Assembly (NCBI GenBank): GCA_963767735.1
Contig: CAVYES010000006.1
Span: forward strand, 448,001 to 512,000
Length of the DNA stretch: 64,000 nt
Origin: Candidatus Bathyarchaeota archaeon
GTDB lineage: Archaea > Thermoproteota > Bathyarchaeia > Bathyarchaeales > Bathycorpusculaceae
Direction of reading: 5' to 3'
Below are positions 26,083 through 53,813 of this stretch, in pieces. The position numbers and the translations under genes were made by a program. Below the pieces are notes generated by a model. That model was not told the origin of the DNA, made no database searches, and was given only the letters and a program-made list of their open reading frames with translations. The first letter of the stretch is position 1; each line of letters starts with the position of its first letter.

Positions 26083-26286
26083 ACGCCGAAGAAAGGCTAC
26101 AAAAGCATCACCGTAAAAGCTGAAGTTTACGATTACTTTTTTAACGAGTGGTTGAAGGTCAAAGAGGAATACGCAATTAAAAAAGGCAATAACAGCTTCT
26201 CAGCATACATTACCTACCTCTTAACTCAGCTGATGAACGAAGAAAAGAAATGTACAGCAAAAAATAAACTTGGACAGAATTCATAG
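26083..26286 (+). CDS. Small RHH-type DNA-binding protein (67 aa, ACG start, not in ORF track)
   Basis: GGAGAGGT SD then ACG-CCG-AAG; (M)PKKGYKSITVKAEVYDYF...SFSAYITYLL. Confidence 0.65.
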   Translation, partial: TPKKGYKSITVKAEVYDYFFNEWLKVKEEYAIKKGNNSFSAYITYLLTQLMNEEKKCTAKNKLGQNS

Positions 26287-26633
26287 ACATTAAACGATTA
26301 TGGCTATTTCCGAGAGCATTCAAGGGTTAAGATGATCTTACTAAAATTACTAAGACGATTTAAGGCTTAACACTATACCTACCAACGAAATTTTACTAAA
26401 TGTTTCAAGCGATCTTAAGGCACGGTCTCGGTAAAATCAAAGTTTCTTTATAGTAAAAGTTTAAGTTCTATTTGGAACAAATGTGTTCTTTAGAAGGTCT
26501 TTAGGATGTACTTTAAGAAAGTGCGGGAGAAACCTTTTCACGTATCAATTTATTAAACTAAATAATAAAATTCTCTCTAAAAAAGCTATAACTTACATTT
26601 TAAGAATCAATAGCCCCCAAACCAGTGTTTAGT

Positions 26634-28172
26634 ATGAAACGCCTCGCTTGCATTATTCTGATCGTAACAATTCTTGTTAGCGGGCTATTTTTTGTTGAAA
26701 CCGCTTATGCACAAATTCCTGCTGGCATAACAATTTCCAGCAACGAGGAATGGACAATATCGCAAAGCCCAGTAAATTTTAACGGAACTGTAACTGTGGC
26801 CAGTGGTGTGACTTTAACGATTGATCCAGGTGTAACTGTCAACTTAGGAATGTACTCTTTGCTTGTATATGGTACGTTAATTGCCCAAGGTAACTCTAGT
26901 AGCCAAATTGTATTTGCTGCCACCGTTAACGTTAACTCGGGTAACCTGACCTTGCAAAATAATCTGGTTGTGCCGATTATTTTTTCATCTTTGAACGCCG
27001 TGACTAGTTCGGGGTCAATTATTCAAAACGCGATTTTAGATGGAGTATATCTTGCGATAGATGGTGCATCGCCCGAAATAGACAACTGCCTTTTTAATTT
27101 TGCCACAGGAGTCTCGCCGATTAGCATAAATGGCGGTTCACCCGTAATCTCCAACAATACCATAAATTTCAATGCCCAAAGTATTCAAGGTTTTGGCGGT
27201 GGCGTCGACGGCATTAACGTATTCGGCGGATCCCCGCTAATAGCCAGCAACCAGTTTGAAGGAGACTTCTTGGGCTACAGCAACATAGGAATCTATGTGA
27301 GTTCGGAAGTTTCAGGAACTCCAATAATAAATAATAATTCATTCGTAGCACAGTACGGCAATAACAGCGAAGGCATAAGCGTCGTCTCAGGCAGTCCACA
27401 GATAACTAACAATCAGTTTGAAGGCGGCGGATACCTCAATGGCATTATTGACTCGTCGTCTTCTTACATCACCATTTCAAACAATACGTTCTCAAACTGT
27501 TTATCAGGCATCACAGCGCAAGCTCAAAGCACATTGACGGTTCAAGGCAACTTCTTTTTGAGAGGAACAGATGGTATAGACATTATATCGGGAGCAGCAT
27601 CATTAACAATCACTGATAACCTGATCGATAGCAACTCTCGGTACGGAATCAACGGGGGCGGAAGCATAACTTCCAACACTATCAGCAACAACCAAATAGG
27701 AATACATAATCCCCCATCAGGTGTAATCAGCTACAATAACATCGTCGGCAACTCCATAAACAGCGTTACCGCCACCGTTGATAATATTGATGCGGCGAAC
27801 AATTGGTGGGGAATAACCGACACCGCAACAATCAACCGAACAATCTATGACTCAAAAGTCGATTGTCACCTCGGAACAGTCACGTTTACTCCATTCTTAA
27901 CCCAACCGAGCACCTCCGCACCAACCATCCCGAGTTATACGCCCACTATTACTCCTGTTCCATCACCAGTGCCACCCTCAACGCTAACCGACGAACCTGT
28001 ATTAGCGCCAACGTCAACGTCAGATCAAGATTCGCCATCATTCGTAAATCAAGTGGGCACGTTGCTGAACTTGAACGTAATCACAACCGTCACTGCAATT
28101 GTATTGGTCATAGTATGGATGATTGTAATATTAGGGTACGCGGCGAAAAGAGGCATCTCGAAATACAGATAA
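26634..28172 (+). CDS. Surface protein with right-handed beta-helix (NosD/pectin-lyase-like)
   Basis: Signal peptide, GVTLTIDPG, PxIxNNxF repeats, DAANNWWG, Pro/Thr linker, C-terminal TM. Confidence 0.85.
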   Translation: MKRLACIILIVTILVSGLFFVETAYAQIPAGITISSNEEWTISQSPVNFNGTVTVASGVTLTIDPGVTVNLGMYSLLVYGTLIAQGNSSSQIVFAATVNVNSGNLTLQNNLVVPIIFSSLNAVTSSGSIIQNAILDGVYLAIDGASPEIDNCLFNFATGVSPISINGGSPVISNNTINFNAQSIQGFGGGVDGINVFGGSPLIASNQFEGDFLGYSNIGIYVSSEVSGTPIINNNSFVAQYGNNSEGISVVSGSPQITNNQFEGGGYLNGIIDSSSSYITISNNTFSNCLSGITAQAQSTLTVQGNFFLRGTDGIDIISGAASLTITDNLIDSNSRYGINGGGSITSNTISNNQIGIHNPPSGVISYNNIVGNSINSVTATVDNIDAANNWWGITDTATINRTIYDSKVDCHLGTVTFTPFLTQPSTSAPTIPSYTPTITPVPSPVPPSTLTDEPVLAPTSTSDQDSPSFVNQVGTLLNLNVITTVTAIVLVIVWMIVILGYAAKRGISKYR

Positions 28173-28395
28173 GAATTTTAAAAGCTGGGTTTCACGAGCA
28201 TCTTCAAGGGCGAATCAAAAGGTGTTTCTTCGTATTCTATTTTTATTGAAGCTATTTGGCTATCAGGTTCCCCGTAAACAATTTTATCTAAGAGTTTAAA
28301 TCAATACTCCTTTCCCCGTTACAGTAAGAAGTTTTTTCAGCCTCGTAATGCTTTTCAATGAGTGCCAAAATATCATATGTAAAGGTGCAGGAAAA

Positions 28396-29199
28396 TTGAA
28401 CGAGGCGAAACCAGTAATCCTTAAAATCGGCGGTTCAGCCATCACTGACAAAACAGGGGAACTAGCCGCAAAAACTGAAATCATAAATCGCTTAGCGGAG
28501 GAAATCAAACGGGCGGATCTTGATAACTTGATTATCGTGCATGGCGGCGGAAGCTTTGGTCACCCGACCGCTGCGAAGTACGGCATAAAAGACGGCTACA
28601 AAGAAGACCCGACGCAAAAACTCGGCTTCGCTGAAACCCACCACGTCATGACAGTGCTCAACGGGCTAGTCATGGACGCGCTTATTTGGCATGAAATTCC
28701 CGCCATAAGCATTGCACCATCATCCTGTATCATAACAGAAAACGGCAAAATCAAATTTTTCGACGAAACCGTGCTTAAATCAATGGAGAAAATGTTGTTT
28801 AAGCCCGTCATGTACGGCGATGCAGTTTTAGACGATAAATTAGGCTTCACAATTCTCTCAGGCGACCAGTTGGTTGCTTACTTAGCCATCAAGTACAAAG
28901 CTTCAAAAATCGTAGTAGGCGTTGACACAGACGGCTTGTTTGACTGTGACCCGAAAACTAACCCCAACGCCAAACCATACAAGCACTTAACGTTGGCTGA
29001 ACTCAAGCAGATTCAACCTAAAATAGGCAAAGCAGCAGGCGCGGACGTCACAGGCGGCATGGCGGGAAAAATAGCGGAGCTGATCCCAGCCATCGAGCAG
29101 GGCGTGCGCGTTACTGTCACAGGTGCTACAAAAGGCTTATCCATTTACAGGGCACTAACCGACCAAAGCGTCATGGGCACTGAAATCGAGAAGGCGTAA
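28396..29199 (+). CDS. ipk: Isopentenyl phosphate kinase
   Basis: ILKIGGSAITDK, VHGGGSFGH, SGD, DVTGGMAGK. Confidence 0.95.
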   Translation: MNEAKPVILKIGGSAITDKTGELAAKTEIINRLAEEIKRADLDNLIIVHGGGSFGHPTAAKYGIKDGYKEDPTQKLGFAETHHVMTVLNGLVMDALIWHEIPAISIAPSSCIITENGKIKFFDETVLKSMEKMLFKPVMYGDAVLDDKLGFTILSGDQLVAYLAIKYKASKIVVGVDTDGLFDCDPKTNPNAKPYKHLTLAELKQIQPKIGKAAGADVTGGMAGKIAELIPAIEQGVRVTVTGATKGLSIYRALTDQSVMGTEIEKA

Positions 29200-29200
29200 C

Positions 29201-30298
29201 ATGACTGAAACCGAGAAGCGAAAAGCAGAACACATAAAAATCCTCTTGGAACAAAAAGCCCAAGCCAAAAAAGCCACTACAGGCTTCGAAGACATCCAGC
29301 TGGTCCACCGAGCACTGCCCGAAGTTGACCGACAAAAAATCAACATATCAGCCTCTTTCTTAGGCAAAAAATTGTCAGCACCACTGATTGTCGGTGCTAT
29401 GACTGGCGGAACGGAAGAAGCAACAAAAATAAACGCTTCAATAGCCGAAGCCGTGGAAAAACTTGGTTTAGGTATGGGTGTGGGAAGCCAAAGAGCAGCT
29501 ATCGAAGACCCAAAACTCGAAAAAACCTACAAGATAGCACGCAAAAAAGCGCCAAATGCCTTCTTAATCGCCAACATAGGCGGAGTACAGCTTGTCCACG
29601 GATACGGCTTGAAAGAAGTCAAGAAAGCCGTGGAAATGATAGATGCTGACGCATTGGCCGTTCATTTGAACGCGGTGCAGGAAGCACTTCAACCTGAAGG
29701 ACAAACCAACTTCAAAGGCGTCTTAGCTAAAATCGGCGAAATTGCGGGTGAACTTGACAAACCTGTAATTGTTAAAGAGACCGGCTGCGGGGTTTCAGCG
29801 GAAGATGCTAAAGCGCTTGAAGCTGCAGGAGTAAAAGCCATCGATGTCGGCGGTGTCGGCGGAACAAGTTTTGCAGCGGTTGAATATTACCGTTCAACAA
29901 GCCCAAACAACTTGGGCGAAGTATTCTGGGACTGGGGTATTCCAACAGCCGTAAGCCTAATCGAAACGACTCAGACCGTGAAGATTCCGGTGATTGCTTC
30001 AGGCGGAGTCCGAAGCGGTTTAGACATCGCTAAAGCCGTAGCGTTAAACGCAAATTTAGCCAGTACTTCTCAGCCCGTTCTTGAAGCCGCAGTTAAAGGG
30101 GCAAAGAAAACTGAGAAATTGCTTTCTTGTTTAATCGATGAGTTGTGCAATGTTATGTTTCTTGTGGGCGCTGAGAACCTTGAATCCTTAGCAAAAGTGC
30201 CTGCGGTGATTATTGGAAGAACTGCAGAGTGGCTAAACATCCGAGGTTTCGACACAGTGAAGTATGCGCAGAGGAGCACGTTAACGTTTGAATATTGA
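29201..30298 (+). CDS. fni: Type 2 isopentenyl-diphosphate isomerase
   Basis: RKAEH, AMTGG, GVGSQR, HLN..QE..QPEG, VKETG. Confidence 0.97.
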   Translation: MTETEKRKAEHIKILLEQKAQAKKATTGFEDIQLVHRALPEVDRQKINISASFLGKKLSAPLIVGAMTGGTEEATKINASIAEAVEKLGLGMGVGSQRAAIEDPKLEKTYKIARKKAPNAFLIANIGGVQLVHGYGLKEVKKAVEMIDADALAVHLNAVQEALQPEGQTNFKGVLAKIGEIAGELDKPVIVKETGCGVSAEDAKALEAAGVKAIDVGGVGGTSFAAVEYYRSTSPNNLGEVFWDWGIPTAVSLIETTQTVKIPVIASGGVRSGLDIAKAVALNANLASTSQPVLEAAVKGAKKTEKLLSCLIDELCNVMFLVGAENLESLAKVPAVIIGRTAEWLNIRGFDTVKYAQRSTLTFEY

Positions 30299-31358: not shown

Positions 31359-31380
31359 AATTTCAGCGAGCGTAAAAAAT

Positions 31381-33132: not shown

Positions 33133-33145
33133 GAGATGAACCAAC

Positions 33146-33448
33146 ATGAGAAAACTCGATAAAGCAATAATTTGGCCAATCTACTTCGACGCTTCAAAAT
33201 CAAGAAGAAAAGGACGTCGGGTCCCAAAAAACTTGGCCGTGCAATCCCCAAAAATTGCCGAGCTCAAAGAAGCAGTTGACAAATTAGGTTTAAAAAACGA
33301 AGTTAACCTTGAAGCTCATTTTCCCAAGAATCATTGGGCAAAGACTGGAATGTTGCTTGTCGAAAAGAAAGAAGCAAAAGAAAAGATAATACAGAAAATT
33401 GCTAAACAACTAGTGAAGATTAAAGCCGCAACTGCAAAACCGCAGTAA
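33146..33448 (+). CDS. srp19: Signal recognition particle protein SRP19
   Basis: IWPIYFD..SRRKGRRVPK. Confidence 0.95.
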   Translation: MRKLDKAIIWPIYFDASKSRRKGRRVPKNLAVQSPKIAELKEAVDKLGLKNEVNLEAHFPKNHWAKTGMLLVEKKEAKEKIIQKIAKQLVKIKAATAKPQ

Positions 33449-33451
33449 AGT

Positions 33452-33847: not shown

Positions 33848-34051
33848 AATCTACATTTCCCTTTTACGATGTTTAATTCGAGTAGTCAGTAAAACCGTTA
33901 ATTTCCATATAAACATATCCGTTTCAAGCTTGTTCTTCATTAGTAAAATGTTCCTTTCTTATACCTTTATCAATCAGTTTTCTTTGGGGTAAGTATCAAA
34001 GTGACCGGCAAGTTTTATTAGACTGTTGTGGGATATTTATGTGGGAAAAAT

Positions 34052-34869: not shown

Positions 34870-35469
34870 CTATGTTTCTTGGAAGTCTTTCAGTGCGTCG
34901 CCGAAAATGTGTTTGAAGTCTTTCTTCATCATGGTTATGTCGTGTGTTAATCCGAAGTAATCTGCGAAATAGTCAGTGGTTTTTAAAGCCGTTGAACGGC
35001 CGCTTCTTTCAGCCACAATTAACCCCATGTCCTTGAGCAGCTTCACGTGGCCATAAGCGTGTTGTCCCCTGACATCAATCACGCGTTTCTGAGAAACAGG
35101 CTGCCGGTAGGCAATGTAGGAGAGCGTTTTGAGAGGCCCAGAAGACAGCAGAGGTCTGTTTACAAGTTTCTTAATCAATGGCGTAAAGTCTGCTTTCACC
35201 TGCAAAACGTAACGTTCATCTTTCAACGCTAAAATTTCAAGCGCCGTGTTCCTTGCCACATATTCTTGTCTCAGAGTGTCTGCGTATTTTTGAGCTTTCT
35301 TCTTAGAGTGGCTGCCTATAACTTGGCATAACTCGTTAAGGTCTAATGGGCGACCAGCCACGAACAACGCAGCCTCGAGCAAAGCTAAGCAATGAGCTTT
35401 CCGTTCGGCATCCTGCGCTTGCTCTACATCAGGGTTTGAATTAACTGTCTGTTCCTTTGGCTTTTCCAA
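34870..35469 (-). CDS. scpB: Condensin subunit ScpB
   Basis: LEAALF, LKTLSYIAYRQPV, VRG, TTDYFADYFG; likely TTG start at 35469. Confidence 0.93.
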   Translation of the reverse strand: MEKPKEQTVNSNPDVEQAQDAERKAHCLALLEAALFVAGRPLDLNELCQVIGSHSKKKAQKYADTLRQEYVARNTALEILALKDERYVLQVKADFTPLIKKLVNRPLLSSGPLKTLSYIAYRQPVSQKRVIDVRGQHAYGHVKLLKDMGLIVAERSGRSTALKTTDYFADYFGLTHDITMMKKDFKHIFGDALKDFQET

Positions 35470-36148
35470 TATTGAGTTTCCCCACGGCAATGTATAGTTC
35501 TTCTGTTTCTTCATTCTGCCATAAACTTACTTTGCCATCCTGTGCTAAAAACAAGAGATAAATAAACATTCTTAAGGCTTCGATTCTAGTTGCGTCTTTC
35601 GATAAGGTTGAGAAATCGATTATGCCTGCACCCTTCACTTTCTCGCATAAAATGGCATATAATTTGTCAATTTGCAACTCTAGTTCAGCTACAAACTTGT
35701 CAAACTGCGGCATCAAATCTGTAACCGCTGGAAGAATAGGATGCTGCTCCATTGTATGGTCCAAACGAAGTAGTTTTTCGCCCTTCAACACGTCGTCTAA
35801 GACTTCAAGTAAATGCTGAATAGTTGTAGAGGTTAACTCATGGCGCAAAGGTAAGAACAAGGGCGGAGGAACAAAATCTTGAGGTCCCTTAGCCGGCAGA
35901 GCAGGTGGTTCCTGCAGAGAAAGCAACAGTTTAGACTTCATCAAGTAAATCAAGGCCGAAGAATCCAATGCGACTCCTGAGGCTCGGAAATCAACCTTTT
36001 CTGTTCGCTCCATCTCAGTGAGAAACGACCGCAATAGGTAAGCTATGTTAACGTTCCATGGAGTAAGCTTTTCAAGCTTGCTTACTTCAAACAGTATGTT
36101 CCAAGGAGGACGAAGGTAAAAGGGTTTTCTGAGTGGCGTGGTTGACGT
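35441..36148 (-). CDS. scpA: Kleisin ScpA (apparent ACG start at 36148)
   Basis: PWNVNIAYLL lies upstream of the first TTG; DFRASG..LMKSKLL; FIYLLFLAQDGKVSLWQ; sits between smc and scpB. Confidence 0.88.
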   Translation of the reverse strand, partial: TSTTPLRKPFYLRPPWNILFEVSKLEKLTPWNVNIAYLLRSFLTEMERTEKVDFRASGVALDSSALIYLMKSKLLLSLQEPPALPAKGPQDFVPPPLFLPLRHELTSTTIQHLLEVLDDVLKGEKLLRLDHTMEQHPILPAVTDLMPQFDKFVAELELQIDKLYAILCEKVKGAGIIDFSTLSKDATRIEALRMFIYLLFLAQDGKVSLWQNEETEELYIAVGKLNIGKAKGTDS

Positions 36149-39100
36149 TAGCGTGGTGCCTCCGGTGGAAACTTTGCTGTGACAACGTTTGAGACTCCGT
36201 TGCGTTCGTAGACTCCGTAGACTTTTTGTGCTTTGTTAACCATTTCAGGACGCAGGCTGATCACTATGAACTGCATTTTTGCTGCTTCTTCGAGGAGTAC
36301 TTCGGCAAGTTTGGTTGTGTGGTAAGCATCTAAGTGTGCATCAACTTCGTCTAGGATGAAGAAGGATGCTGGCGTGAATTCTTTTAGTGAGAATATGAAG
36401 CTGACTGCTGAAACTGAACGTTCACCGCCGCTTGCTCCGCTTACAACGATTGAGGGCTTGTTTGGGAACTGTACAATCATGTCTATGCCGCCGGTGAAAG
36501 GTTCTTCGGGGTTTTCAAGTTTAAGCGTGGCTTCTCCGCCGCCGGTGAGTTTGGAGAAGTATTGTTTGAGGCTGGTGTTGATTTTTTCGAAGGCGCTCAT
36601 GAAGACTTTGCGTTTTTTTGCTTCGATTTCATCCATGAACTGTACGATGGCTTGTTTTTCTTTTTCTAACTCGTTTAAGCGTACTGATAATTCTTTATAG
36701 CGGGACAGTTGGTCGGAATAGTGTGAAAGCGCAAGTTGGTTTATGGCGCCTATTCTTTCCATTTCAAACTGCATCATGCGGATAGTTATTTCGGCTTCCT
36801 CAACCTGTTTCTGATTTGTTTCTAAAGGTTGTTCGTAGCCGAATTGGCGAAGTTGCGATTGGAGTTGCTGGAGACGAAGCTGGCTAGTTTCCATGTTTAG
36901 CTGCAGCTGATTTAGCAGCTTATCTGCCTGTTCATATTCAAAATCAAGCGACCGCAGTTCGGAGTCAATGGCATCTATTTGTGATGTGAATTTTTTGGAT
37001 TCTTCCCGTGCAGAAAAAACAGCTTTTGAAAGCTCAACACGGCTTTTCTCGAATTCTTCGATTCCTTTCTTTAATGACTCGCGTTCTTGAAGTGCGTCTG
37101 CAACTTCTTTCTCAAGCTTTCTTTGTTGCTGTTCAACTTTGACTATCTGTATTTTGATGTTCTTGTATCCATTCCTTAGAACTCTGTCGAATTGTGACTG
37201 ATATGTTGAAATTTCCGTTTGAGTGGACCCTGAGTTTTGGCGGAGCTTGTTTAGTTCTTCTCCCAGTTTTTCCCGTTGCACTTCGAGCTCTTGAATGTGC
37301 GACACATCAGTTTTCAGTCTTAAAGTGGCGATGTCTGCTTGCAATTTTTGGTCTGTTCTCCTGATAGAATTTCGCTCATTCATGTACATGCTCATGCGGC
37401 CTTTGTATGCTGCTGCTTCACGTTCAAGTTTGCCGCCGTATTTTTCCGTATGACGAATGTTGAATTGTGTCCTTTTAACGCTCCGTTTGATGCGCACCAG
37501 TTCCCTGTCCAACGTGGCGATAGATTCTTCAAGCCGTGTCATTTCGATTTTGCTTCGGCTGATTTCTTCTTCGATGCCCGTAATGTCTGTTCCTCGTTGA
37601 GTGAGATGCGTCTGGAGAGCTTTTACTGCTTCATCTAAACTTTTTAATGCATTTTCGCTTGGAATAATTGTTGAGAAATCTATTGGGGCACGGTAATAGC
37701 CGCTTTCAAAAGCGCCGGGTTCGTACAAGTCTCCGTTCACTGTGACTGCTCGGTAGCCTTCATTTGAAAGCGCAAAAGCTACTCTATCGTTAGATACTAC
37801 CACTGTGTCTCCGAAAACATAGTTTACGGCCAGTTCATAGTTGCTGTCAAATTTCATGAAGCTTGAAAGGGCACCTACTACGCCGTCTCGGCTGGGTGTC
37901 CCCTTGTTTTTAACGTTGATAGCTCCCTGCAACGGAATAATTTTTATTCTGCCCAGTTTCATTCGTCTTAGCGTTTCAGTACATGTGAAGGCTGAATCGA
38001 TATTTGCCACCACTAAAGCGTCAAGCCAACCTGTCGCCGCTGCTTCGATAGCTTTCTTATAGTTTTTGTCTATTTTTATCAGGTTCCGTAGCCTGCCGTG
38101 GATTCCAGTTATCGCGCCAACGTTGCCCATTTCTTCTATGCTTCTTAGGGCTTTTTCTTCAGCAGCTATAGTTGCCGCAAGGTCTCTTTGAGTAGCAAAC
38201 TCTATCACGGCGTCTTTGGCGGAGCTGGCTATTTTTTCTGCGTCAGTGATTTCTTTTTCAACGGTTTCTTTTTGGAGTTTTTTACGCTCGATTGTGTGTT
38301 CAAAGTTTTTAAGCGAGTTTTTCTGGTCCTTCTGAACCTGCTCCAGCTCGCCTAATGATTTTTCGATTTCAGTTAGGCTTGTTTGGAATTTTTCTTTTCT
38401 CACGTTTAAGTTTTTGAGTCTTCCACTGCATAGGCGAAGGGCTGATTTGTCTTTGGTGTATTCTGAGCGTAAATACGCCAGCCGTTTAACGTGGTTTTCG
38501 ATTTCTGATTGCTTTACCCGTATTTGCTGGTTGTTATCGCCAAGCCCTTCCCAAAGTTGCGCGGTTTCTTTTGCAGCTGTATCATGCTCCATTTCTTTTT
38601 GAGTTATTTGGTCTTTGGTTTTCACGTATTCACTGCGGAAGGCTCGGATTTTCAGTCGGTTTTCCCGTATCTCCTTCCTAATATTTTCTTGTTGAAGAAG
38701 GTTGTTTTCTCCTACGCGTTTTAAGCTTTCAAGGCTGCCTTGTCCAGAATTAATTTTGCTGTTTAACTCGGTAAGTTTAGATTTTAATTCACCAATCGTT
38801 ATTTGAACCTTAAGAACTTCTGAACCGCCTTGTTCAAGGTTTTCGCCGCTGAGTTTTCGCCAATCAGACTCGATTCCATGGCGTTTAGACCTGCGCAGGT
38901 CACGTTGTTCTTTTAATTTGTCAACTCTGACTTTGACTTTTTCAGTTTGGCTGGTTGCTTCATTTATTCTCGCGTTTAATTGCGTTATGTCGCTTGATAG
39001 TTTGATTGCTTGGAACTTTTTCGTCTCACTCTGAATGAAGTTGTAACGTAAAAGTTGGTTTCGTTCGCGTTCTAAATCGTCGAGGCGTTTTTGCACTTCA

Positions 39101-39699
39101 TCTATTCTGCCCATGGCTGTGCGGATTGAAATGTCGGCAGCGCGAAGTTTTTCTTCCGCATCCGCCTTCTCCGCGTCATACTGACCTATTCCAACGAGGT
39201 CTTCAATGATTCTTCGGCGTTCAATCGGGTTAATCTCCGTTAATCGGGTTAAGGTGCCTTGAGGGATAATGTTTTGGCTGATGCTGCTGATTGAACTCAT
39301 GGACAGGGTTTCTGTAATGTACGTTCTTGACATTCTTCTGCCGTTTAATCGGTAAACGCTTTGGCCGTTTTTAAAAACTTCACGTGAAATCGTAACGGTA
39401 GTTGTATCAACAGGCATTGTGCCATCCGAATTATCAAATTGAATGACAACCTTCGCCATTTTGGCTTTTTCTTCCCCAGCTTTCCCAGCGCCATGAAAGA
39501 TCAGTTGAGCCGCATTTTCAGCGCGGAGCCTTCTTGTACTCAATTCCCCAAGCGAGAAAAGCACTGCATCCATTATGTTGGATTTTCCGCTGCCGTTGGG
39601 ACCAGTTAAAGCTGTGAAGCCCTTGTCCAAGTTTATTTTGACAGTCTGTGGCCCAAAAGACTTAAAGCCTTTTAACTCAATTTTTTTTATGTAGGGCAT
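36148..39699 (-). CDS. smc: Chromosome segregation protein SMC
   Basis: GFKSF, GPNGSGKSN, coiled coils with hinge, SGGE, LDEVDAHLD. Confidence 0.98.
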   Translation of the reverse strand: MPYIKKIELKGFKSFGPQTVKINLDKGFTALTGPNGSGKSNIMDAVLFSLGELSTRRLRAENAAQLIFHGAGKAGEEKAKMAKVVIQFDNSDGTMPVDTTTVTISREVFKNGQSVYRLNGRRMSRTYITETLSMSSISSISQNIIPQGTLTRLTEINPIERRRIIEDLVGIGQYDAEKADAEEKLRAADISIRTAMGRIDEVQKRLDDLERERNQLLRYNFIQSETKKFQAIKLSSDITQLNARINEATSQTEKVKVRVDKLKEQRDLRRSKRHGIESDWRKLSGENLEQGGSEVLKVQITIGELKSKLTELNSKINSGQGSLESLKRVGENNLLQQENIRKEIRENRLKIRAFRSEYVKTKDQITQKEMEHDTAAKETAQLWEGLGDNNQQIRVKQSEIENHVKRLAYLRSEYTKDKSALRLCSGRLKNLNVRKEKFQTSLTEIEKSLGELEQVQKDQKNSLKNFEHTIERKKLQKETVEKEITDAEKIASSAKDAVIEFATQRDLAATIAAEEKALRSIEEMGNVGAITGIHGRLRNLIKIDKNYKKAIEAAATGWLDALVVANIDSAFTCTETLRRMKLGRIKIIPLQGAINVKNKGTPSRDGVVGALSSFMKFDSNYELAVNYVFGDTVVVSNDRVAFALSNEGYRAVTVNGDLYEPGAFESGYYRAPIDFSTIIPSENALKSLDEAVKALQTHLTQRGTDITGIEEEISRSKIEMTRLEESIATLDRELVRIKRSVKRTQFNIRHTEKYGGKLEREAAAYKGRMSMYMNERNSIRRTDQKLQADIATLRLKTDVSHIQELEVQREKLGEELNKLRQNSGSTQTEISTYQSQFDRVLRNGYKNIKIQIVKVEQQQRKLEKEVADALQERESLKKGIEEFEKSRVELSKAVFSAREESKKFTSQIDAIDSELRSLDFEYEQADKLLNQLQLNMETSQLRLQQLQSQLRQFGYEQPLETNQKQVEEAEITIRMMQFEMERIGAINQLALSHYSDQLSRYKELSVRLNELEKEKQAIVQFMDEIEAKKRKVFMSAFEKINTSLKQYFSKLTGGGEATLKLENPEEPFTGGIDMIVQFPNKPSIVVSGASGGERSVSAVSFIFSLKEFTPASFFILDEVDAHLDAYHTTKLAEVLLEEAAKMQFIVISLRPEMVNKAQKVYGVYERNGVSNVVTAKFPPEAPR

Positions 39700-41220: not shown

Positions 41221-42343
41221 GCACGCGCGCTGCCTTGTCCCGATATTACGTGTTGAAGTATGTTGGTGAGACTGCTTTATCGTATCTTCCGAAGTTTTCT
41301 GCCGCCTCTCGGTTCAGAACTAAGCATAGAATGCTAAAGAGCGCATATGAAGCTACGTTGCCTAAGCCTCTTACTTTATTGACGGTTAGGCTGTACTGTG
41401 TCTTTAGGAAGCTGTAGACTGCCTCTACATGAGGTCTTTTGTGGTACTCCTTCTTCTGTTCTTCCGGTCCATAGGCTCGAAACTTCTTGTCCACTCTCAG
41501 CAAGCCCTTAACGTCCCGTTTCTGGTTTGCAACGATACGGAATCACCGCAGCGTCAACAGCGTCTCTGAGTTTGCCGTCGCTGTACTGGCTGTCAGCTAT
41601 CACACTTCTCAGTTTAGCCTCAGACTGCTTGAGAATCAGCTTGGTCTTCTCCAGCAGGTTCAATGAGTGTTTCTGCTCGTTCTGGTTGGCCGAAGCAAAA
41701 ATGCAGGCTAAAGGAAGCATAGTCGCAGAATCGATAGCTAAGTGAAGCTTGTAGCCGAGTCCGAAGGATCTGCCTGCGCGTCCGACTCTGGCTTCCTTGT
41801 CTGAATAGCCAGTCTGGTTGTCCAGTGGATCACGTGTACTCCACGCATTTATAAAGGAAGCATCAAAGATGGAATCAACGTCTCTTGCACTGCTGTGTTT
41901 CGAGAGTTTAACAACTTTCTCCTCTATTATGTTGATGAGGCGGATTTCTCCGACTTTGCGGATGAACCTGCTGAGAACACTTCGTGGGTAGCCTTTTTCG
42001 GCTGGTTTGATGAGGCACAATCTTCTAAGTCTTGGGTCTGCGTCGAGTAGTCTGGTCATTTCTCTTAGGCTGCGAACGCCCTTCATGCGCATGACGATGA
42101 AGGTTCTGAAAAGTCCCAATGGGTTTCTTGGGGGTCTTCCTGGACCATCGGAATGGAAGCAGTCTGAGTAAGGCTGCTTTAGCAAAACTTAAGTCTACGT
42201 TTCTGAAGAGGGTTTCTAGGGTCTCGTGTTCATCTTGTCCCGCTTGGGGTCACCTCCTAAGCTTGGACGTAACTCATTTGAATACGAGACCCCAACTCAA
42301 AAATAAACATTAACTTAATTTAGGGACAAGCCAGCGCGCATGC
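41221..42343 (-). mobile_element. IS element with DDE transposase (IS5/IS4-like)
   Basis: 31-bp inverted repeats at 41221-41251 and 42313-42343 (26/31 match) enclosing a transposase. Confidence 0.88.
41246..42243 (-). pseudogene. DDE transposase, frameshifted near 42168 and 41531
   Basis: GRPP, FDAS, GYKLHLAID, IADSQY, Y..R..VE..S.LK. Confidence 0.85.
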
Positions 42344-42408: not shown

Positions 42409-42537
42409 TTAATTTTTTCTCTTATTCCATCTGCGGTTACCAGGTGGTCCTATAAGAAAATAACCTATTAACATAAGAGCAATGGTTACAACGATAATTA
42501 TCACAACTGTTACTTCAGTCGTTACTCTCACCTCCAT
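42409..42537 (-). CDS. Single-TM micro-protein (ATG 42537 or ACG 42522)
   Basis: VTVVIIIVVTIALMLIGYFLIG followed by basic tail RRWNKRKN; GGAGGTGA SD. Confidence 0.5.
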   Translation of the reverse strand: MEVRVTTEVTVVIIIVVTIALMLIGYFLIGPPGNRRWNKRKN

Positions 42538-42757
42538 TTTTAGTGTCTAAGTCTAAACATTTCCACTTAGGGCGAGCGTAATTTTTTTCGGTGTTTAGTA
42601 CTTCAACCTGGAACTTTTTTGGCAATGACGAAAAGTGTGATTCATTAACGACTTTTTCGCCATCCACTTCTATCTTGATGTATTTTAGAAGCGCGGTCGC
42701 ATTAACAATAATGGTGTGTTTTTCAGTCTCTCCTATTTCAAACTTGGCTTTTGTCAT
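42515..42757 (-). CDS. Hypothetical small beta protein, possibly truncated
   Basis: GGAGG SD; FEIGETEKH..IEVDGEKV motif whose second copy appears cut short. Confidence 0.55.
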   Translation of the reverse strand: MTKAKFEIGETEKHTIIVNATALLKYIKIEVDGEKVVNESHFSSLPKKFQVEVLNTEKNYARPKWKCLDLDTKNGGESND

Positions 42758-42785: not shown

Positions 42786-43530
42786 CTACTTCCACTTTGT
42801 TAGTATTTCCTCCCTTCGGAAAGTGGCTGTGCTAACATAGAACAGCGCCACATCAACCGCTAAAAGTATACCTGAGATTATAAGCAGGCTGTTTACGTCA
42901 AGAGTTATTATGCTTGTCTCACTGGCAAGGTATATGCCCAAGAGTGGAAAGAGGATAAAAATTCCAAAACTGTTAGCGCTGCGCACATCATTAACTCGCG
43001 ATGAAACAATGACGCTGAACAAAACACTCATAACAATGGCGACCGGCATCAGAACCAGGAGCAAAGTGGCGATGTTCCAGTTTGGAAAATAATAGTAGCC
43101 AAGCGTATGGAAAGTAACCTCATCAATGCCCACCATGAAGACTGCTGCAGCCGCATACATTGCTACTAAAGTTGGAATAATTGCGGAAATGGCTTTTCCA
43201 AGCAATATTTCTCCATCAGTAAGGGGCGTGGCTAGAAGCGGTTCCAGACTCTTCTCCACTTTCTCCCCCACTATACTGTAGGAGGCAATCCCTAAGGGAA
43301 CGTATGCTGCTCCTATAACTAAAAAGAAGGAAAAGGAGTTAAGCAAATTTGGAAGCACACCCGGCGCTGCGAGTCCATGGCTCCCCCTTACTGCTAAATA
43401 TTCCAGTATCACCGGAAACAGGACTGAGATAACAACTGGGAAAATAATAATTGAGGTACCAGACGTTTTTTACTCGCCTAAATATTTTGAAGTCCCTGGC
43501 TGCTATAATCCACGCCTTTGAGAGTCTCAT
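42786..43530 (-). CDS. ABC-2 type permease (+1 frameshift near 43455)
   Basis: SIVGEKVEKSLEPLLATP..EILLGK, FRREEIL. Confidence 0.9.
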
Positions 43531-43532
43531 AT

Positions 43533-45753: not shown

Positions 45754-45754
45754 C

Positions 45755-48290: not shown

Positions 48291-48292
48291 CA
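48258..48292 (+). repeat. 35-bp direct repeat, copy 1 (3' end of polB2)
   Basis: GCCGTCAAAGGGGAGCACCAAAAAACCCTTTAACA. Confidence 0.95.
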
Positions 48293-48463
48293 AAAAATCT
48301 TGCCCAACTTGCATCCAAACACAAAATGGCGCCAGCGATGGACCAATGAGGCAGAGAAATGGCAAGATAAGATTCCTGAGGCAAAAGCTTTTTTGAAGAA
48401 CTTTGTAAGTAAAGAATACTTTATAAGATTATCCAGATATAGGATTATCCTGAGTAGAATAAT

Positions 48464-49828
48464 GTGAAGTTCTATGATAGACGGATTGAACTTAAGGCAT
48501 TAGACGTAGCTTGTTCCCAAAAAGGCGCAGAGATGATAGTAGTTAGTGGGCGCAGGCGAATTGGCAAGAGCAGGCTCATTAATGAATTTCTAAAAGAAAG
48601 AGACGCGGTCAAGATTCTGATAGTACCAAAAGAAGAGAAACAAGTAGCAGGCGATTTTGCAGTTGCCCTCGCTGATGGTTATACTCCTTCACTAAGTAAC
48701 GTGGAACAAGCTCTTGAATACTATTTCAACAACTCAAAGAAACAGATTCTCTACATAGATGAGTTTCCAAATCTTATCGAAGTGAACGCTTCAATACCAT
48801 ACGTCTTTCAAAGGATTTGGGAGAAATACAAGGAAACAAGTTCAAGAAAACTCATTTTTTCAGGCTCGTATGTTAGCATGATGAACAAGATATTTACTCA
48901 TCAGAAAGCACCCCTTTTCAACAGAGCAAGTTATCAGTTCATACTTCAACCATTAACATTAAGAGTTGTTTGGGAAATTCAAGAAGATCTAGGAGTGGAT
49001 GCCTTGGAAAAGATTAGAAACTACTGCATACTTGGAGGAGTGCCTTTCTATTACGAATTGCTTGAAAAAAGGGGAATTGCGAATCCTGTAAATGATCTCT
49101 TTTTTGACGTCGCCGCACCTCTCAAGGAAGAAGGGCAAAATGTACTCAGACAAGAATTTGGATTCTCCTATAAGAAATATTTCTCAATAATAGAAGCGAT
49201 AGGCGCAGGCGTTGTCACAGGCAGCGAAATAGCAAACAGACTTGGTGTGTCGCAGACAACGCTCTCTAAATATATAATTTCACTACAACAAGACTTTCAA
49301 CTTGTAGAGCGGAACGTGCCGTTTGGGCAAAACATCCACAGAAGCAAGAAAGGACTATACTCAATCAAAGATAACACCATCGCCTTCTGGTTCGCCCACG
49401 TTTATGGCAAGCCCGAACAACCCAATAAAGAGATGATTAACGAATTTGTCAGTAAGAGGTTCGAAATGTTTTGCAAGGACTTTTTTGCAGCATACTTAAA
49501 GGTCAAAGGTGAAAAAGTAATCAGAACGGGACGCTGGTGGGGGCAAGTGGAGGTTACGCCAAATAAGTTCGAAGAAAAAGAGATAGACTTCATTACAGAA
49601 ACAGAAAGCTGCATGTATTTTGCAGAGTGCAAATGGACAAACAAAAAAATAGGTCTAATGGGCCTCAACACCACTCTTGAAGAATCATCTAAAGCTATAA
49701 AAACCAAAAAAACTGTTAAGAAAGTGCTCTTTTCAAAATCGGGGTTCGACTTAAATGAAGCCAATGACGTTTTGCTGTTTAATCCTGAAAGGATAGAAAG
49801 TGAAATAAAAAGGCTGCATGGCGTGTGA
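48464..49828 (+). CDS. Archaeal ATPase with wHTH and DUF234 PD-(D/E)XK domain
   Basis: FYDRRIEL, GRRRIGKS, IDEFP, GGVPFY, FWF, EID..FAECKW. Confidence 0.92.
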   Translation: MKFYDRRIELKALDVACSQKGAEMIVVSGRRRIGKSRLINEFLKERDAVKILIVPKEEKQVAGDFAVALADGYTPSLSNVEQALEYYFNNSKKQILYIDEFPNLIEVNASIPYVFQRIWEKYKETSSRKLIFSGSYVSMMNKIFTHQKAPLFNRASYQFILQPLTLRVVWEIQEDLGVDALEKIRNYCILGGVPFYYELLEKRGIANPVNDLFFDVAAPLKEEGQNVLRQEFGFSYKKYFSIIEAIGAGVVTGSEIANRLGVSQTTLSKYIISLQQDFQLVERNVPFGQNIHRSKKGLYSIKDNTIAFWFAHVYGKPEQPNKEMINEFVSKRFEMFCKDFFAAYLKVKGEKVIRTGRWWGQVEVTPNKFEEKEIDFITETESCMYFAECKWTNKKIGLMGLNTTLEESSKAIKTKKTVKKVLFSKSGFDLNEANDVLLFNPERIESEIKRLHGV

Positions 49829-49852
49829 GATAAACCGTGCAAAACTCAGGAT

Positions 49853-49887
49853 GCCGTCAAAGGGGAGCACCAAAAAACCCTTTAACA
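49853..49887 (+). repeat. 35-bp direct repeat, copy 2
   Basis: Identical to 48258-48292. Confidence 0.95.
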
Positions 49888-50021
49888 GAAGAATCTTTTT
49901 GCTCCACCCAACTATTAGCTCGTTAAGTCTAAAGCTTGGGGAATCTATTATTTGTCATTAATAATGCATGCTAAACGTTCTCATCCATGAAACTATGAAA
50001 TTGAAGTAAGCGTTTTTCTTT

Positions 50022-50372
50022 TTATTCGGTCAAGTAATTGGCGTTGTTAATTGGTATTATGATGAATTGATTGGTGTGTGGGCTGCGTTTTTTGGTTTTT
50101 ATGAAGATTGGGGATTCTTGGGGTTTGAGCATTGCTGTAAGATTTATCCATGCTTGAGTGAATTTTTGTCCTTCCTTGGTCGTGATGAACTTTTTTGTGC
50201 TAGGTTGAAGTTCCAGAAGATTTGATACTTGAAGCTGCAGGAGATAGCTCTCAAGCAACTTGAAACTTGTGTTTGTGTTGCGTAAAATGCAGGTTTTTGC
50301 CTGAGGCATGCTACATAGTTCAAGAATGTCTTTTAAGACTTGTAGATGATTTCTTCTATTTTCAAAGATCAA
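50022..50372 (-). CDS. Winged-helix transcriptional regulator
   Basis: RRNHLQVLKDIL..KTCIL..TNTSF...TTKEG. Confidence 0.8.
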   Translation of the reverse strand: MIFENRRNHLQVLKDILELCSMPQAKTCILRNTNTSFKLLESYLLQLQVSNLLELQPSTKKFITTKEGQKFTQAWINLTAMLKPQESPIFIKTKKRSPHTNQFIIIPINNANYLTE

Positions 50373-50466
50373 ACTCTTTTCAAGCGCTATATAGCTTGTA
50401 TGGTATACATGCGGTAATATGCTTGAATGTACTCTTAAGCTTTATTTCGAAGTCTTAAGTGTTAAA

Positions 50467-50673
50467 TTATCTGCGTTTTAATGATTTCCAGGCAAAGAAC
50501 ATGACTGAGGAGACCAGAAATGCTGAGTCAAGCATGTTTGGGAAAGACGGGAAATAAACCCATTGATTAAAAAACGTAACGAATTTCAATGCAACACCGA
50601 TTGTCCCACACACAAAAGTTATCGTCATGCAATCGTTAAAGAGTTCACTTTTCTTGTTGTGAATTGTTTTCAT
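50467..50673 (-). CDS. Small 2-TM protein
   Basis: 68-aa ORF with two hydrophobic segments. Confidence 0.55.
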   Translation of the reverse strand: MKTIHNKKSELFNDCMTITFVCGTIGVALKFVTFFNQWVYFPSFPNMLDSAFLVSSVMFFAWKSLKRR

Positions 50674-50773
50674 GTTTCATCGTTGTACGCTTATACACTT
50701 TGTTTAATAATTAAATTATGAATTTCTACTAATTATTTGAAATAAGAAAATTTTTTGTTTAAGGCTGGGGTTG

Positions 50774-51424
50774 TTATGTTATTCTGGTTGCTGTTTCTAT
50801 GAGGAATCCTTTTTTGCCGATTGTGTATGGGATGCTTCTTGAAGGGACAAAGGTGCCTTTCATTTTCTTTACCATGATATCTCGATGTGTGGCATCTGAC
50901 GTCCATGTTGTATTGAATAATATTACGCCGTCGGCGAAGTGTTGCATTGCAGTTTCAGCTTTTGGGTCTTGCATCCCTTCAGTCAAGAGAAGTAAGTGGT
51001 ATTCTTCGCTGTCTTTGTTTTGACGTAACATTGCGGTGAGCAAGTTAATGGCTTCTCCGATTTTCCGGGTTAAGAGCACTTCGGAGAGTGAATCTATAAT
51101 AATTGTTCGATGCCCTCGCATTTCTTCAAGTACGGTTTCCACCAGATTATCGGCTTTTGCCAAGGTTTCAAACTTCCAGTTTCCTGTGGCTTCTAGCGGT
51201 GAGGTATCCCAGTTATAGGCGGCCATCTCTTCTTTCACGTTGTCGGAGGTAACATTTACAGTAAAGTATGTTACCCCAATCTGTTTTGCTCGCAAATAGG
51301 CGATTTGTCTAGCAAAGACTTCGTTTCCCGAGCCTGGCAAGCCTGTTAGAAGCAATATTTTAGGCGGTAGACCTCCAGTTAAGAATTCGTCGAGACCTGC
51401 GATTCCAGTTTTAACAAGTTTCAT
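50774..51424 (-). CDS. KaiC/RAD55-like single-domain protein with degenerate Walker A
   Basis: KTGIAGLDEFLTGG, GLPGSGNE, IIIDSLS, FADGVI, VKKMKG. Confidence 0.88.
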   Translation of the reverse strand: MKLVKTGIAGLDEFLTGGLPPKILLLTGLPGSGNEVFARQIAYLRAKQIGVTYFTVNVTSDNVKEEMAAYNWDTSPLEATGNWKFETLAKADNLVETVLEEMRGHRTIIIDSLSEVLLTRKIGEAINLLTAMLRQNKDSEEYHLLLLTEGMQDPKAETAMQHFADGVILFNTTWTSDATHRDIMVKKMKGTFVPSRSIPYTIGKKGFLIETATRIT

Positions 51425-51658
51425 CTTTAGCTTCCTTCTTCATGTTTTCAATATTTTTGTCGAAACTTTTTTCAACCCGCCGCAAGAAAAAGCGGAAATA
51501 TGCTTTTCTCTAAACTTTTATCACAGTTAAATGTCAATGTTAACTCTATTAAGAAATGTTTCATTTTTAGCCTTATAAGAATTCGGGTGGAAGATTGTTC
51601 CTTACCGCTTTTTAAGCAAGCGTCCGAGAGTTAGCTTAAGAAAGGAGAGCTTTCTAAG

Positions 51659-52111
51659 ATGAATTTTAGAAAAATTCGAAAAAATATTAAAGCGATTTCG
51701 CCAATAATTTCGGTGCTACTAATGATAGCCATCGCAGTCGTAGCCTCACTCGTAGTCTACGCATGGGTAATGGGATACATAGGATACCAAACCGGCAAAA
51801 CAGGAGACTCGGTAGTAATTCAAAGCGTTACTTTCACCGGCACACCAGGCACCTCGGGAACAGTTAATCTAGTATATCTACAAAATATTGGCAGTACAAC
51901 GATTAAGTTGCAAGCAGGTCAATGTTTGTACGTCGGTGGTGCGCTTGATACACTTGCCGGAGGAGCTCCAGCAACACTAGCTCCAGGCGCTACCGCAGTA
52001 ATTACAGCAACGCCAGCTCAGCAGACCGCATGGACCTCAGGCACAGAACTTACAATTAAAGTAACCACGGTAGGCGGAACATACAGTCAAGTAACTGAAC
52101 AGGTTCCTTGA
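51659..52111 (+). CDS. Archaeal type IV pilin (probable major pilin)
   Basis: Class III signal peptide KNIKA/ISPIISVLL plus hydrophobic helix. Confidence 0.9.
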   Translation: MNFRKIRKNIKAISPIISVLLMIAIAVVASLVVYAWVMGYIGYQTGKTGDSVVIQSVTFTGTPGTSGTVNLVYLQNIGSTTIKLQAGQCLYVGGALDTLAGGAPATLAPGATAVITATPAQQTAWTSGTELTIKVTTVGGTYSQVTEQVP

Positions 52112-52169
52112 AAAAAGTGTTAAATCGCTTTTCATCTCTATCCTTTTTTCTTTTGAACTTTAAAAATAA

Positions 52170-53813
52170 ATGAGGTCGATATTAACGGTATTTAACAAAC
52201 AGATAAGATTGTTTAACAGAAAGAAGTCTTCAAATATTACGCAGAGTACGGTCATTGAAGATAATGTAGCGGAGACTTCGATCTCTTCTAGCTTAATTGA
52301 TGGCGCATCTGGAGTTGAAGTGGAAGCTTCCGTTAAAGATTCTACGGTGTTGGAAAGTTACATGCTTAATGCGCCTTACGCTTCTGTTCAAATTACGCGC
52401 GACACGGTTGGCGGCAACGTCAATTATGTTGTGGAAGAACCAAAGCTCAGCGTGACTGACCTGAAAAGTCTCGAGCGCCTGAAAGGAATTTTAAATGAAG
52501 TTTTGGAATATAGGCCAAAGGAACTGAAATCAAAGCAGGCCGCTGCAGAATATCTAGTAAAAAAGAGCAATGAAATATTAGATAATTACCATTTCAATTT
52601 AGACTCACAGACATGCGGTAAGTTGCTCTATCATGTTCTCAAGGATAATCTTGGTTTCGGAAAAATAGACGCGCTTATGCATGATCCGTTGATCGAAGAT
52701 ATTTCCTGCGATGGAGTCAATGTACCCATTTATATTTGGCACAGAAAATTTGAATCTATCCCGACCAACATTCTTTTTGAAACAGCCGAAGAGCTTGACT
52801 CCTATGCTTTACGACTTGCTTATCTTTGCGGAAGCCATGTTTCAATAGCGCAGCCTATGCTTGATGCATCCTTGCCGGATGGCAGCAGAATCAACTTGAC
52901 ATATGGAAGCGAAGTTACCCGTAAAGGCTCAACTTTCACTATAAGAAAATTCAAGCTTGACCCCTTCACAGTCACAGATCTCGTCACTTTCAAGTCTATG
53001 TCGTCCGAGATGGCTGCTTTCTTCTGGTACGCAGTAGAAAACCGAGTTTCGATTTTGGTGGCAGGCGGCATAGCAGCTGGAAAAACAACATTGCTAAATT
53101 GTTTAAGCATGTTTATTAAGCCCGATTTGAAGGTCGTCTCAATTGAAGATACCCCTGAACTAAATCTTCCCCATAAAAACTGGATTCCCGCTGCTACAAG
53201 AACGCATTTTGGGCTTGCAACAGAAACTTCGGATATCACTCTTTTCGATCTGCTGAAAGCCGCATTGAGACAGAGACCAGACTACATCATTGTGGGAGAA
53301 ATCCGAGGGGCAGAAGCTTACACGCTGTTCCAAGCAGTAAGTACCGGTCACCTTGGAATGTCAACGGTTCATGCAGAATCAGTTGAGTCAGCCGTGTACA
53401 GGTTAGAGTCAGCGCCCATGAATATTCCAAGAACACTTATCGCAGGAATAGACATCATTCTTGTTCAAAAACGAGTCGAATTAAACGGCAAGCCCGTGAG
53501 AAAAACCGTTGCAACCTCAGAAATAGTAGGTTTAGATCCGCGTTCAGGAGAAATTTTAACAAACGAAGTTTACAGATGGAATCCTGCACTAGACACTTTT
53601 GATTTTACAGGCAGAAGCTACATTCTAGAAAAGGTAGCTGAAAAAACAGGCGTGACTCCAGAAGAAGCAAGCGAAGAAATCCAGCGCAGGGCTAAAGTGA
53701 TCCAATGGCTGGTCAAGAAAAATATTCGAAACTACAAAGAAGTCTCAAACATAATCCGAAGCTACCTTGAAAACCCTGAGCCCGTATTAAAGGAGGCTCT
53801 AAACAACGAATAA
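52170..53813 (+). CDS. Type IV pilus assembly ATPase (FlaI/TadA-like)
   Basis: IEDISCDG, LPDGSR, GGIAAGKTT, IEDTPE, RQRPDYIIVGEIRG, TGH. Confidence 0.95.
   Translation: MRSILTVFNKQIRLFNRKKSSNITQSTVIEDNVAETSISSSLIDGASGVEVEASVKDSTVLESYMLNAPYASVQITRDTVGGNVNYVVEEPKLSVTDLKSLERLKGILNEVLEYRPKELKSKQAAAEYLVKKSNEILDNYHFNLDSQTCGKLLYHVLKDNLGFGKIDALMHDPLIEDISCDGVNVPIYIWHRKFESIPTNILFETAEELDSYALRLAYLCGSHVSIAQPMLDASLPDGSRINLTYGSEVTRKGSTFTIRKFKLDPFTVTDLVTFKSMSSEMAAFFWYAVENRVSILVAGGIAAGKTTLLNCLSMFIKPDLKVVSIEDTPELNLPHKNWIPAATRTHFGLATETSDITLFDLLKAALRQRPDYIIVGEIRGAEAYTLFQAVSTGHLGMSTVHAESVESAVYRLESAPMNIPRTLIAGIDIILVQKRVELNGKPVRKTVATSEIVGLDPRSGEILTNEVYRWNPALDTFDFTGRSYILEKVAEKTGVTPEEASEEIQRRAKVIQWLVKKNIRNYKEVSNIIRSYLENPEPVLKEALNNE

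Follow-up and report, generated by a model that had tools for sequence, protein, structure and literature searches.

Does an archaeal ribosome begin ordinary genes at ACG? This question is raised by a 64,000-nt stretch of a Candidatus Bathyarchaeota genome (contig C6, positions 448001-512000; hereafter the window), in which an earlier note had listed four places where ACG stands behind a Shine-Dalgarno sequence (SD) at the position expected for an ATG start: at the head of scpA (site 1), of a small ribbon-helix-helix (RHH)-like gene (site 2), of a TadC-like gene (site 3) and of a micro-open reading frame (micro-ORF, site 4). All four were found as described, with the SD ending 10, 7, 9 and 8 nt before the ACG (sites 1-4, respectively). 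Sites 1 and 2 have no canonical alternative (ATG, GTG or TTG) before the conserved N-terminal sequence, while sites 3 and 4 have one each, TTG 53818 and a GTG at codon 7. Here, we followed the question through the whole genome (3.04 Mb, 10 contigs, 43% G+C; called G000 below) and its relatives. Judging from sequence comparison, ACG probably serves as a genuine and recurrent start of translation in G000 and related Bathyarchaeia, led by an SD and read by the methionyl initiator tRNA (Met-tRNAi).

Sites 1 and 2: no canonical start codon before the conserved N-terminus

The first site lies at the junction of smc and scpA, where the following features were annotated.

36146..36148, minus strand: ACG, putative start codon of scpA, sharing its A with the smc stop TAA at 36150-36148 (TAACG)
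36159..36163, minus strand: SD GGAGG, 10 nt upstream of the scpA ACG, complementary to the 16S rRNA 3' end and conserved in relatives
35441..36148, minus strand: scpA coding sequence read from ACG, 235 codons plus stop; PF02616 SMC_ScpA at 27.7 bits (cut-off 24.6)
36148..39699, minus strand: smc, upstream in the operon, 1183 aa; SMC_N at 202.8 bits, SMC_hinge at 74.9 bits

The product is identified as the kleisin ScpA by the SMC_ScpA profile match, by its place directly after smc and by its conserved N-terminal segment. The open scpA frame extends back to 36235; the first ATG, GTG or TTG in it is the TTG at 36034, 38 codons past the ACG and beyond the conserved PFYLRPPWNILFE motif; translated from ACG, the protein starts TSTTPLRKPFYLRPPWNILFE. 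Relatives were retrieved via ScpA and are titled Candidatus Bathyarchaeota or Bathyarchaeia metagenome-assembled genomes, with soil, peat and similar material as sources; the public sequencing runs that contain the window stretch are soil and peat metagenomes. A match to scpA was present in 38 of 41 related genomes, and nearly all matches are free of internal stops. In an alignment of 30 loci from the 41 genomes, the ACG falls exactly on the ATG of the next-closest species of the same genus (loci L006 and L007, ...CTAAATGTC...), it recurs as ACG in a 92% identical locus (L003) of genome G004, and more distant species start 1-4 codons upstream of the aligned position. The smc-scpA junctions of 80 further loci carry a canonical start in 79 cases (75 ATG and 4 GTG by the rule used), the contig of G004 being the only one with ACG; the PFYLRPPWNILFE motif is conserved in the 30 as well as in the 80 loci. 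The presence of ACG at this junction in two species, and of a canonical start in the rest, points to a recent and tolerated change from ATG to ACG that the two species would have in common.

The second site heads a small gene with these features.

26083..26085, plus strand: ACG, putative start codon of the RHH-like gene; in-frame TAA at 26062, first canonical codon a TTG 23 codons downstream
26068..26075, plus strand: SD-like GGAGAGGT, its GAGGT ending 7 nt before the ACG; weight-matrix score 4.7; GAGGG or GAGGGG kept there in the family
26083..26286, plus strand: RHH-like gene, 67 codons plus TAG
26033..26046, plus strand: promoter-like AAACCTTAAATGAA (TATA-like), about 36 nt upstream of the ACG, a candidate promoter

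The genome has four paralogues of this kind, and 22 family members could be compared across 16 species of the genus. At their start position stands ACG in 20 members, ATG in one and GTG in one, and the spacer GAGGG(A/G)AAC precedes the start in every member. A TATA-like AAACCTTA(T/A)ATAAA is conserved in 20 of 21 aligned upstream regions. The AlphaFold model of the protein has an extended stretch at residues 1-12 and helices at 13-34 and 39-64 (pLDDT 77). Searching with the protein sequence gave no match in Pfam, NCBIfam or the PDB, and Foldseek with the model gave no significant match; its weak matches (E of at least 2) include some to the RHH proteins ParD and ParB-pCXC100. The upstream regions of the family (25990-26082 in the window, and loci L263-L289) also carry repeated GTAC-containing motifs, namely TACCGTAC, TAACGGT and GTACGTTCG, together with a second element, ATATATAATTAA; these motifs may form an autoregulatory operator.

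SD-led ACG is enriched in frame across the genome

The 16S rRNA of this genome ends in ...GGATCACCTCCT, from which the expected SD is GGAGGTGATCC. Genes were called with a home-made codon log-likelihood model trained on 978 long ORFs, which yielded 3232 genes, together making up 80.6% of the genome. From 493 confident canonical starts (299 ATG, 142 TTG and 52 GTG, so that the frequency of TTG and GTG starts remarked on in the earlier note holds for the genome as a whole) we built an SD position weight matrix (PWM) of 20 nt and set the threshold for a strong SD at the top 2% of random positions. The confident starts show a G-rich signal at -14 to -8, and 34% of them pass this threshold. We then scored all in-frame codons from the upstream in-frame stop to the first canonical start, minus the last three codons (n=23,458). 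AAA was excluded as an artefact, since the matrix favours A-rich spacers and about 29% of AAA codons have a strong SD in every frame. A plain count of triplets behind GGAGG or GAGGT was underpowered, with coding periodicity dominant, and the weight-matrix test was used in its place. The top-ranking "ORF without a start" (603 codons, contig C7 about 184878-186689) was rejected, as it is no gene: its 519 AAA and 60 TTT codons form a 1.7 kb A/T homopolymer, almost certainly an artefact of assembly. The frequencies of strong SDs were as follows.

ACG in frame: 37/256, 14.5%
AGT in frame (second highest): 25/376, 6.6%
CTG in frame: 18/284, 6.3%
All non-AAA codons in frame (background): 832/21582, 3.9%
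ACG off frame (two frames): 9/333 and 5/223 (14/556 together), 2.7% and 2.2%
ACA, ACC and ACT in frame: 46/1205, 3.8%

The excess is thus specific both to the frame and to the codon (Fisher's test for in-frame ACG, p=6e-10 in comparison to off-frame ACG and p=3e-9 in comparison to ACA/ACC/ACT). When each group of paralogues was collapsed to one, 32 of 251 in-frame ACG codons still had a strong SD (p about 1e-8). TCG (7/194) and GCG (9/215) were not enriched in the same genome-wide test.

We also selected candidates blindly with respect to the SD, taking codons no more than 6 codons past a stop and at least 12 codons ahead of the first canonical start, with a coding score of at least 3 between them. 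The 25 ACG codons of this set have a strong SD in 36% of cases, in comparison to 34% of canonical starts and 5.8% of other codons. The score distributions of ACG and canonical starts are indistinguishable (Mann-Whitney p=0.76), and in this set ACG starts do not need a stronger SD than canonical ones. A dependence on translational coupling was rejected as well: 10 of the 37 ACG matches lie within 10 nt of the end of an upstream gene, against 51 of 169 canonical starts with a strong SD. From the excess we estimate that about 27 genes start at ACG behind a strong SD; because only 34% of true starts pass the threshold, there are perhaps up to about 80 such genes overall, or 1-2.5% of about 3200.

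N-termini read from ACG are often typical ones, among them signal peptides (e.g., TKKHLALLIVLLF...), one class III pilin signal and DnaG primase. Two diverged ABC permeases with ACG both begin TGI(L/V)TRA(T/V)RNISRRK. Domain boundaries point the same way: counted from ACG, the Pfam domain 2Fe-2S_thioredx occupies residues 23-104 of a protein whose first canonical start is at 81, TP_methylase begins at residue 32 (first canonical start at 79), and DUF4331 at residue 15 (first canonical start at 19).

ACG is retained and exchanged at orthologous starts

The essential primase gene dnaG, which is intact, conserved and free of internal stops, matches NCBIfam NF003108 at 467 bits when read from ACG, with profile position 1 at residue 10. 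Within the genus it begins ACG GGA... in 22 of 23 species and ATG GGA in one. In seven other families of the order the start is ATG in four and ACG in three, all at equal SD spacing. As a control we took the Thr codon at position 8, which shows a synonymous change in 7 of 23 species, whereas the start ACG is never ACA, ACC or ACT. Together with the RHH family, dnaG appears to hold ACG starts that are old and maintained. The three ACG loci from other families (L196, L197 and L199) have an ATG two codons upstream of the ACG, embedded in an extended SD (GGAGGTGATG). This ATG is left without a spacer after the SD and the ACG stands at the proper 8-nt spacing; a gene finder would choose the ATG.

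The 37 ACG matches were also compared with half of the genome of a second species of the genus (G003). Of these, 21 had no match; in five the alignment began no earlier than residue 10, and in the other 11 it began at residue 3 or before. At these 11 aligned starts the codon in G003 is ACG in six (four RHH paralogues, the TadC-like gene and dnaG), ATG in two, and TTG, GTG and AAA in one each. Thus, ACG interchanges with canonical codons at orthologous positions: with ATG in scpA and dnaG, with ATG and GTG in the RHH family, and with TTG and GTG in the comparison with G003. The SD test was repeated on 1.2 Mb (half) of G003, where 9 of 86 ACG codons had a strong SD in comparison to 4.4% (p=0.013), and on 1.2 Mb (half) of G040, from another family, with 5 of 57 in comparison to 3.05% (p=0.03). 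Single ACG matches in both genomes resemble true N-termini. The trait seems to extend through the order, and the statistics beyond G000 are modest.

Other near-cognate codons appear to be used as well. Plausible CTG starts were found in a NusA-like gene (ATG in the G040 orthologue) and in a CobD-like gene (with CTG conserved in G003), plausible ATA starts in two paralogous permeases, and plausible ATT starts in a response regulator and in signal-peptide proteins; such CTG, ATA or ATT starts lie at C3:48927 (+), on C6 (-), at C7:205087 (+), C4:393038 (+) and elsewhere. It seems that CTG, ATA and ATT are used more rarely and that ACG is by far the commonest non-canonical start. The frame- and codon-specific enrichment, the exchange between orthologues, the conservation across species and paralogues and these further near-cognate starts support relaxed start-codon selection, the first of two explanations that the earlier note had offered.

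A single, normal initiator tRNA and a proposed mode of initiation

The earlier note had recommended inspection of the initiator tRNA and of the initiation factor aIF1. About 42 tRNAs were found with ARAGORN and Rfam. The genome has a single initiator tRNA (C5:186288-186389) with a normal CAU anticodon, an A1:U72 pair and three G:C pairs in the anticodon stem, the latter two being identity features of initiators. BLAST found no paralogue of it, and no initiator-like tRNA with a CGU anticodon is present in the genome. The gene for aIF1 is likewise single and ordinary-looking. Apart from this, the initiator gene is interrupted at the canonical 37/38 position by a 23-nt intron, further introns occur in several other tRNA genes, and that of a third CAU tRNA (C5:383415-383540) carries a long one.

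We propose the following course of events. An ordinary GGAGG-like SD, complementary to the 16S rRNA 3' end, lies on the mRNA 7-10 nt upstream of ACG. It would position the 30S subunit with ACG in the P site, where the single CAU initiator tRNA would pair with it even though C faces A at the middle position; the protein would then begin with methionine. The aIF1/aIF2 checkpoint of this lineage would have to tolerate the mismatch. Translation rates from ACG are probably low.

Further ACG candidates in the window

The two remaining sites, and one more that came up in the window, are listed below.

53806..53808, plus strand: ACG, probable start of the TadC-like (T2SSF) gene, overlapping the end of the upstream T2SSE ATPase gene (ACGAATAA)
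53792..53796, plus strand: SD GGAGG, 9 nt before ACG 53806 and 21 nt before the canonical alternative TTG 53818
42409..42522, minus strand: putative micro-ORF of 37 codons, hydrophobic with a basic tail; ACG at 42522, 8 nt after GGAGG 42535-42531
43464..43466, minus strand: further ACG candidate, of lower confidence, for an ABC-2 permease, 18 codons upstream of GTG 43412; PWM score 3.8

The TadC-like orthologue in G003 keeps ACG at the same place and has CTG where G000 has TTG 53818. A paralogue of the micro-ORF on contig C4 (83% identity) keeps GGAGGTGAGAGTA-ACG. The orthologue of the ABC-2 permease in G003 has no in-frame ACG at this position. The micro-ORF forms a pair with an 80-aa gene (42409-42757 of the window, minus strand) and is duplicated, with 83% identity, next to the insertion sequence (IS) described below; the second pair is at C4 about 344340-344699, and neither member of the pair has a match in Pfam.

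Possible editing of the transcript, and GCG in an IS5-like element

In plant organelles, C-to-U editing at start codons makes AUG from ACG. The leading rival to ACG initiation, which we hold to be unlikely, is that mRNA editing of this kind turns ACG into AUG before translation, and likewise CTG into UUG and GCG into GUG; it is the second explanation of the earlier note, where it was marked as more speculative. Two RNA runs (X19 and X20) have contigs within the window, and among those listed none spans 26083, 36148 or 42522. The case resembles organelles in that the genome has ACG where relatives have ATG, and such an interchange is the pattern that edited sites leave. The CTG starts would also be accounted for, as would a GCG that stands in the same position in a transposase of the window.

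42241..42243, minus strand: GCG at the head of the IS5-like transposase frame, 9 nt after AGGAGGTGA; candidate start position
41225..42339, minus strand: IS5-like element, window copy, frameshifted in comparison to other copies

This element is present in seven copies, those outside the window being on contigs C4, C5, C6 and C7. The window copy differs by one base from contigs of the sequencing runs at 41530 and at 42165, and a contig of run X3 skips 41228-42335 (empty site). In intact copies a transposase frame of 333 codons opens right after the TGA of AGGAGGTGA, and no canonical codon occurs in it until codon 43, which lies past the conserved GRPPRNP motif. The SD-spaced position of the GCG, 9 nt after GGAGG, is as the earlier note had it. 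A comparison of copies with 87% identity to one another gives 10 synonymous and 3 non-synonymous differences in codons 14-43, from which it follows that this N-terminal part is translated and under purifying selection. The GCG also stands in an element of G018 with 75% identity, and in related IS families an ATG is found some two codons downstream of this position. By inspection we found no slippery site through which a programmed frameshift could lead from the short ATG ORF of the element into the transposase frame.

ACG, CTG and GCG would each become canonical through one C-to-U change. The rival can be taken further: the lineage might convert NCG and CTG codons to canonical starts by editing or by a modified initiator anticodon (ACG read as AUG, GCG of the IS transposase as GUG, CTG as UUG), as a programmed and selectable control of translation for low-abundance proteins such as DnaG, ScpA, RHH regulators and transposases. 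We regard this as an improbable extension. Against editing stand the plausible ATA and ATT starts, which have a like SD architecture and are not made canonical by C-to-U, and the lack of enrichment of TCG and GCG reported above, the GCG count probably including IS copies (six GGAGGTG-9 nt-GCG sites were counted in the genome). Dozens of unrelated sites have only an ordinary SD in common and no evident recognition element. Moreover, no such mRNA editing in archaea was found in the literature searched and, unlike in plant organelles, no editing machinery is known here; the ATA and ATT starts and the ordinary SD fit mispairing by Met-tRNAi better.

Less likely alternatives: another decoder, a downstream start, or an error in the sequence

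A different decoder was considered next, one that we judge to be quite unlikely: ACG could be read by a threonine tRNA, giving an N-terminal threonine, or by an initiator whose modified A35 pairs with C. The use of ACG far above that of other near-cognate codons does hint at a specific pairing and not at general laxity, and the GCG of the IS element would suit a pairing tolerant of C at position 2. However, the genome has no initiator-like tRNA with CGU, and its tRNA-Thr(CGU) is elongator-like, with G1:C72 and without the three G:C pairs.

It is very improbable, in our view, that translation truly starts at the next canonical codon downstream, or that the genes are decaying, with ACG behind an SD as a coincidence or a relic. 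Such a codon is available within 4-8 codons at sites 3 and 4 and in about one third of the 37 matches, and at scpA the ACG is limited to two species. The frame and codon specificity of the enrichment argues otherwise, as do the conserved N-terminal segments and the Pfam and NCBIfam profile starts that precede the first canonical codon. As to decay, scpA is, like dnaG, intact, conserved and without internal stops, and the ACG of dnaG is kept in 22 of 23 species.

That the true base is a T, misread in sequencing or assembly, is hardly credible, for although the assembly does contain the A/T homopolymer on C7 and 1-base indels in the window copy of the IS, these errors are indels and homopolymer and not T-to-C changes, as the earlier note had argued, while, as the stronger argument, ACG recurs in at least 20 separately assembled genomes (of 1 to 320 contigs) and in diverged paralogues within one genome, and contigs of run X1, which may be the source sample, are identical to the window over 26009-26409 and 35924-36193 and thus show no difference at sites 1 and 2.

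Several points weigh against ACG initiation by Met-tRNAi. ACG is found in only 2 of about 110 related scpA loci and may be a tolerated, mildly harmful mutation there. At site 3 the upstream gene overlaps the ACG, which confounds the conservation seen there. In dnaG the first 11 codons hardly vary as DNA within the genus, so the invariance of its ACG, like the control with the Thr codon at position 8, is only moderately informative. With a canonical codon so close, about one third of the 37 matches are ambiguous. The signal outside G000 is modest: CAG (10/97) and CTG (10/104) are similar to ACG in G003, and CCC (4/44) is higher in G040. Both the gene calling and the SD matrix are home-made and do not come from a validated gene finder. 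The GCG of the transposase would need two mismatches to the CAU anticodon and fits editing better than mispairing. Finally, the start position and the first residue of the ACG-start proteins are ones that we infer.

Relation to known near-cognate initiation

Near-cognate starts are familiar from eukaryotes and viruses, e.g., the ACG of AAV VP2 and of the Sendai virus C' protein. The present case is like these in the codon, one base from AUG, in the favourable context, in the presumable use of Met-tRNAi and in the homology of aIF1 with eIF1 and of aIF2 with eIF2. It differs in that the context is an SD and not scanning with a Kozak sequence. Furthermore, the eukaryotic or viral ACG begins an extra isoform or an upstream ORF, whereas here it would be the sole start of ordinary and essential genes, conserved genus-wide. 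In prokaryotes, AUU, CUG and AUA are rare starts beside GUG and UUG (infC, for instance, begins with AUU), and the start list of NCBI translation table 11 includes such codons. SD-led initiation at codons other than AUG is common to those cases and to this genome, in which TTG is heavily used and CTG, ATA and ATT starts look real. ACG differs from them: to our knowledge, it is missing from the start list of table 11, and common gene finders do not use it.

We found no paper describing ACG as an archaeal start codon in the literature searched. In its available part, a review names only AUG, GUG and UUG as archaeal starts, reports that aIF1 discriminates against AUU in Sulfolobus, and, for yeast, counts ACG with the stronger non-AUG codons, its level being about 0.4-0.5% of AUG (PMC4705826); the available text of a further paper does not mention ACG (PMC8211752). 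In ribosome profiling of Haloferax volcanii, about 30% of the putative alternative start sites identified with harringtonine were at near-cognate codons; they were set aside as possible false positives, and ACG is absent from the main text, as far as the available portion goes (PMC7261190). That work is similar in suggesting that archaeal ribosomes may initiate at near-cognate codons, and different in that, in the same portion, conserved genomic use is not shown for Haloferax. ACG as a conserved, genome-wide, SD-led fourth start codon of an archaeal lineage is thus likely to represent a novel form of near-cognate initiation, as far as genome comparison can tell.

Bathyarchaeia are a very abundant uncultured group of soils and sediments, and archaeal gene finders assume AUG, GUG and UUG. 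If ACG is a regular fourth start in this group, roughly 1-2.5% of the genes of each such genome would be truncated, mis-started or missed; here, the genes affected include dnaG and scpA, genes of small regulators, and those of secreted proteins whose signal peptides would be lost. That 22 species retain ACG in dnaG suggests that a weak start is selected for as a means of setting the level of expression. The finding also bears on how the eukaryote-like factors aIF1 and aIF2 police codon-anticodon pairing. As ACG is among the better near-cognate codons of eukaryotes, a lineage in which it is routinely used would be a natural system for the evolution of start-site stringency.

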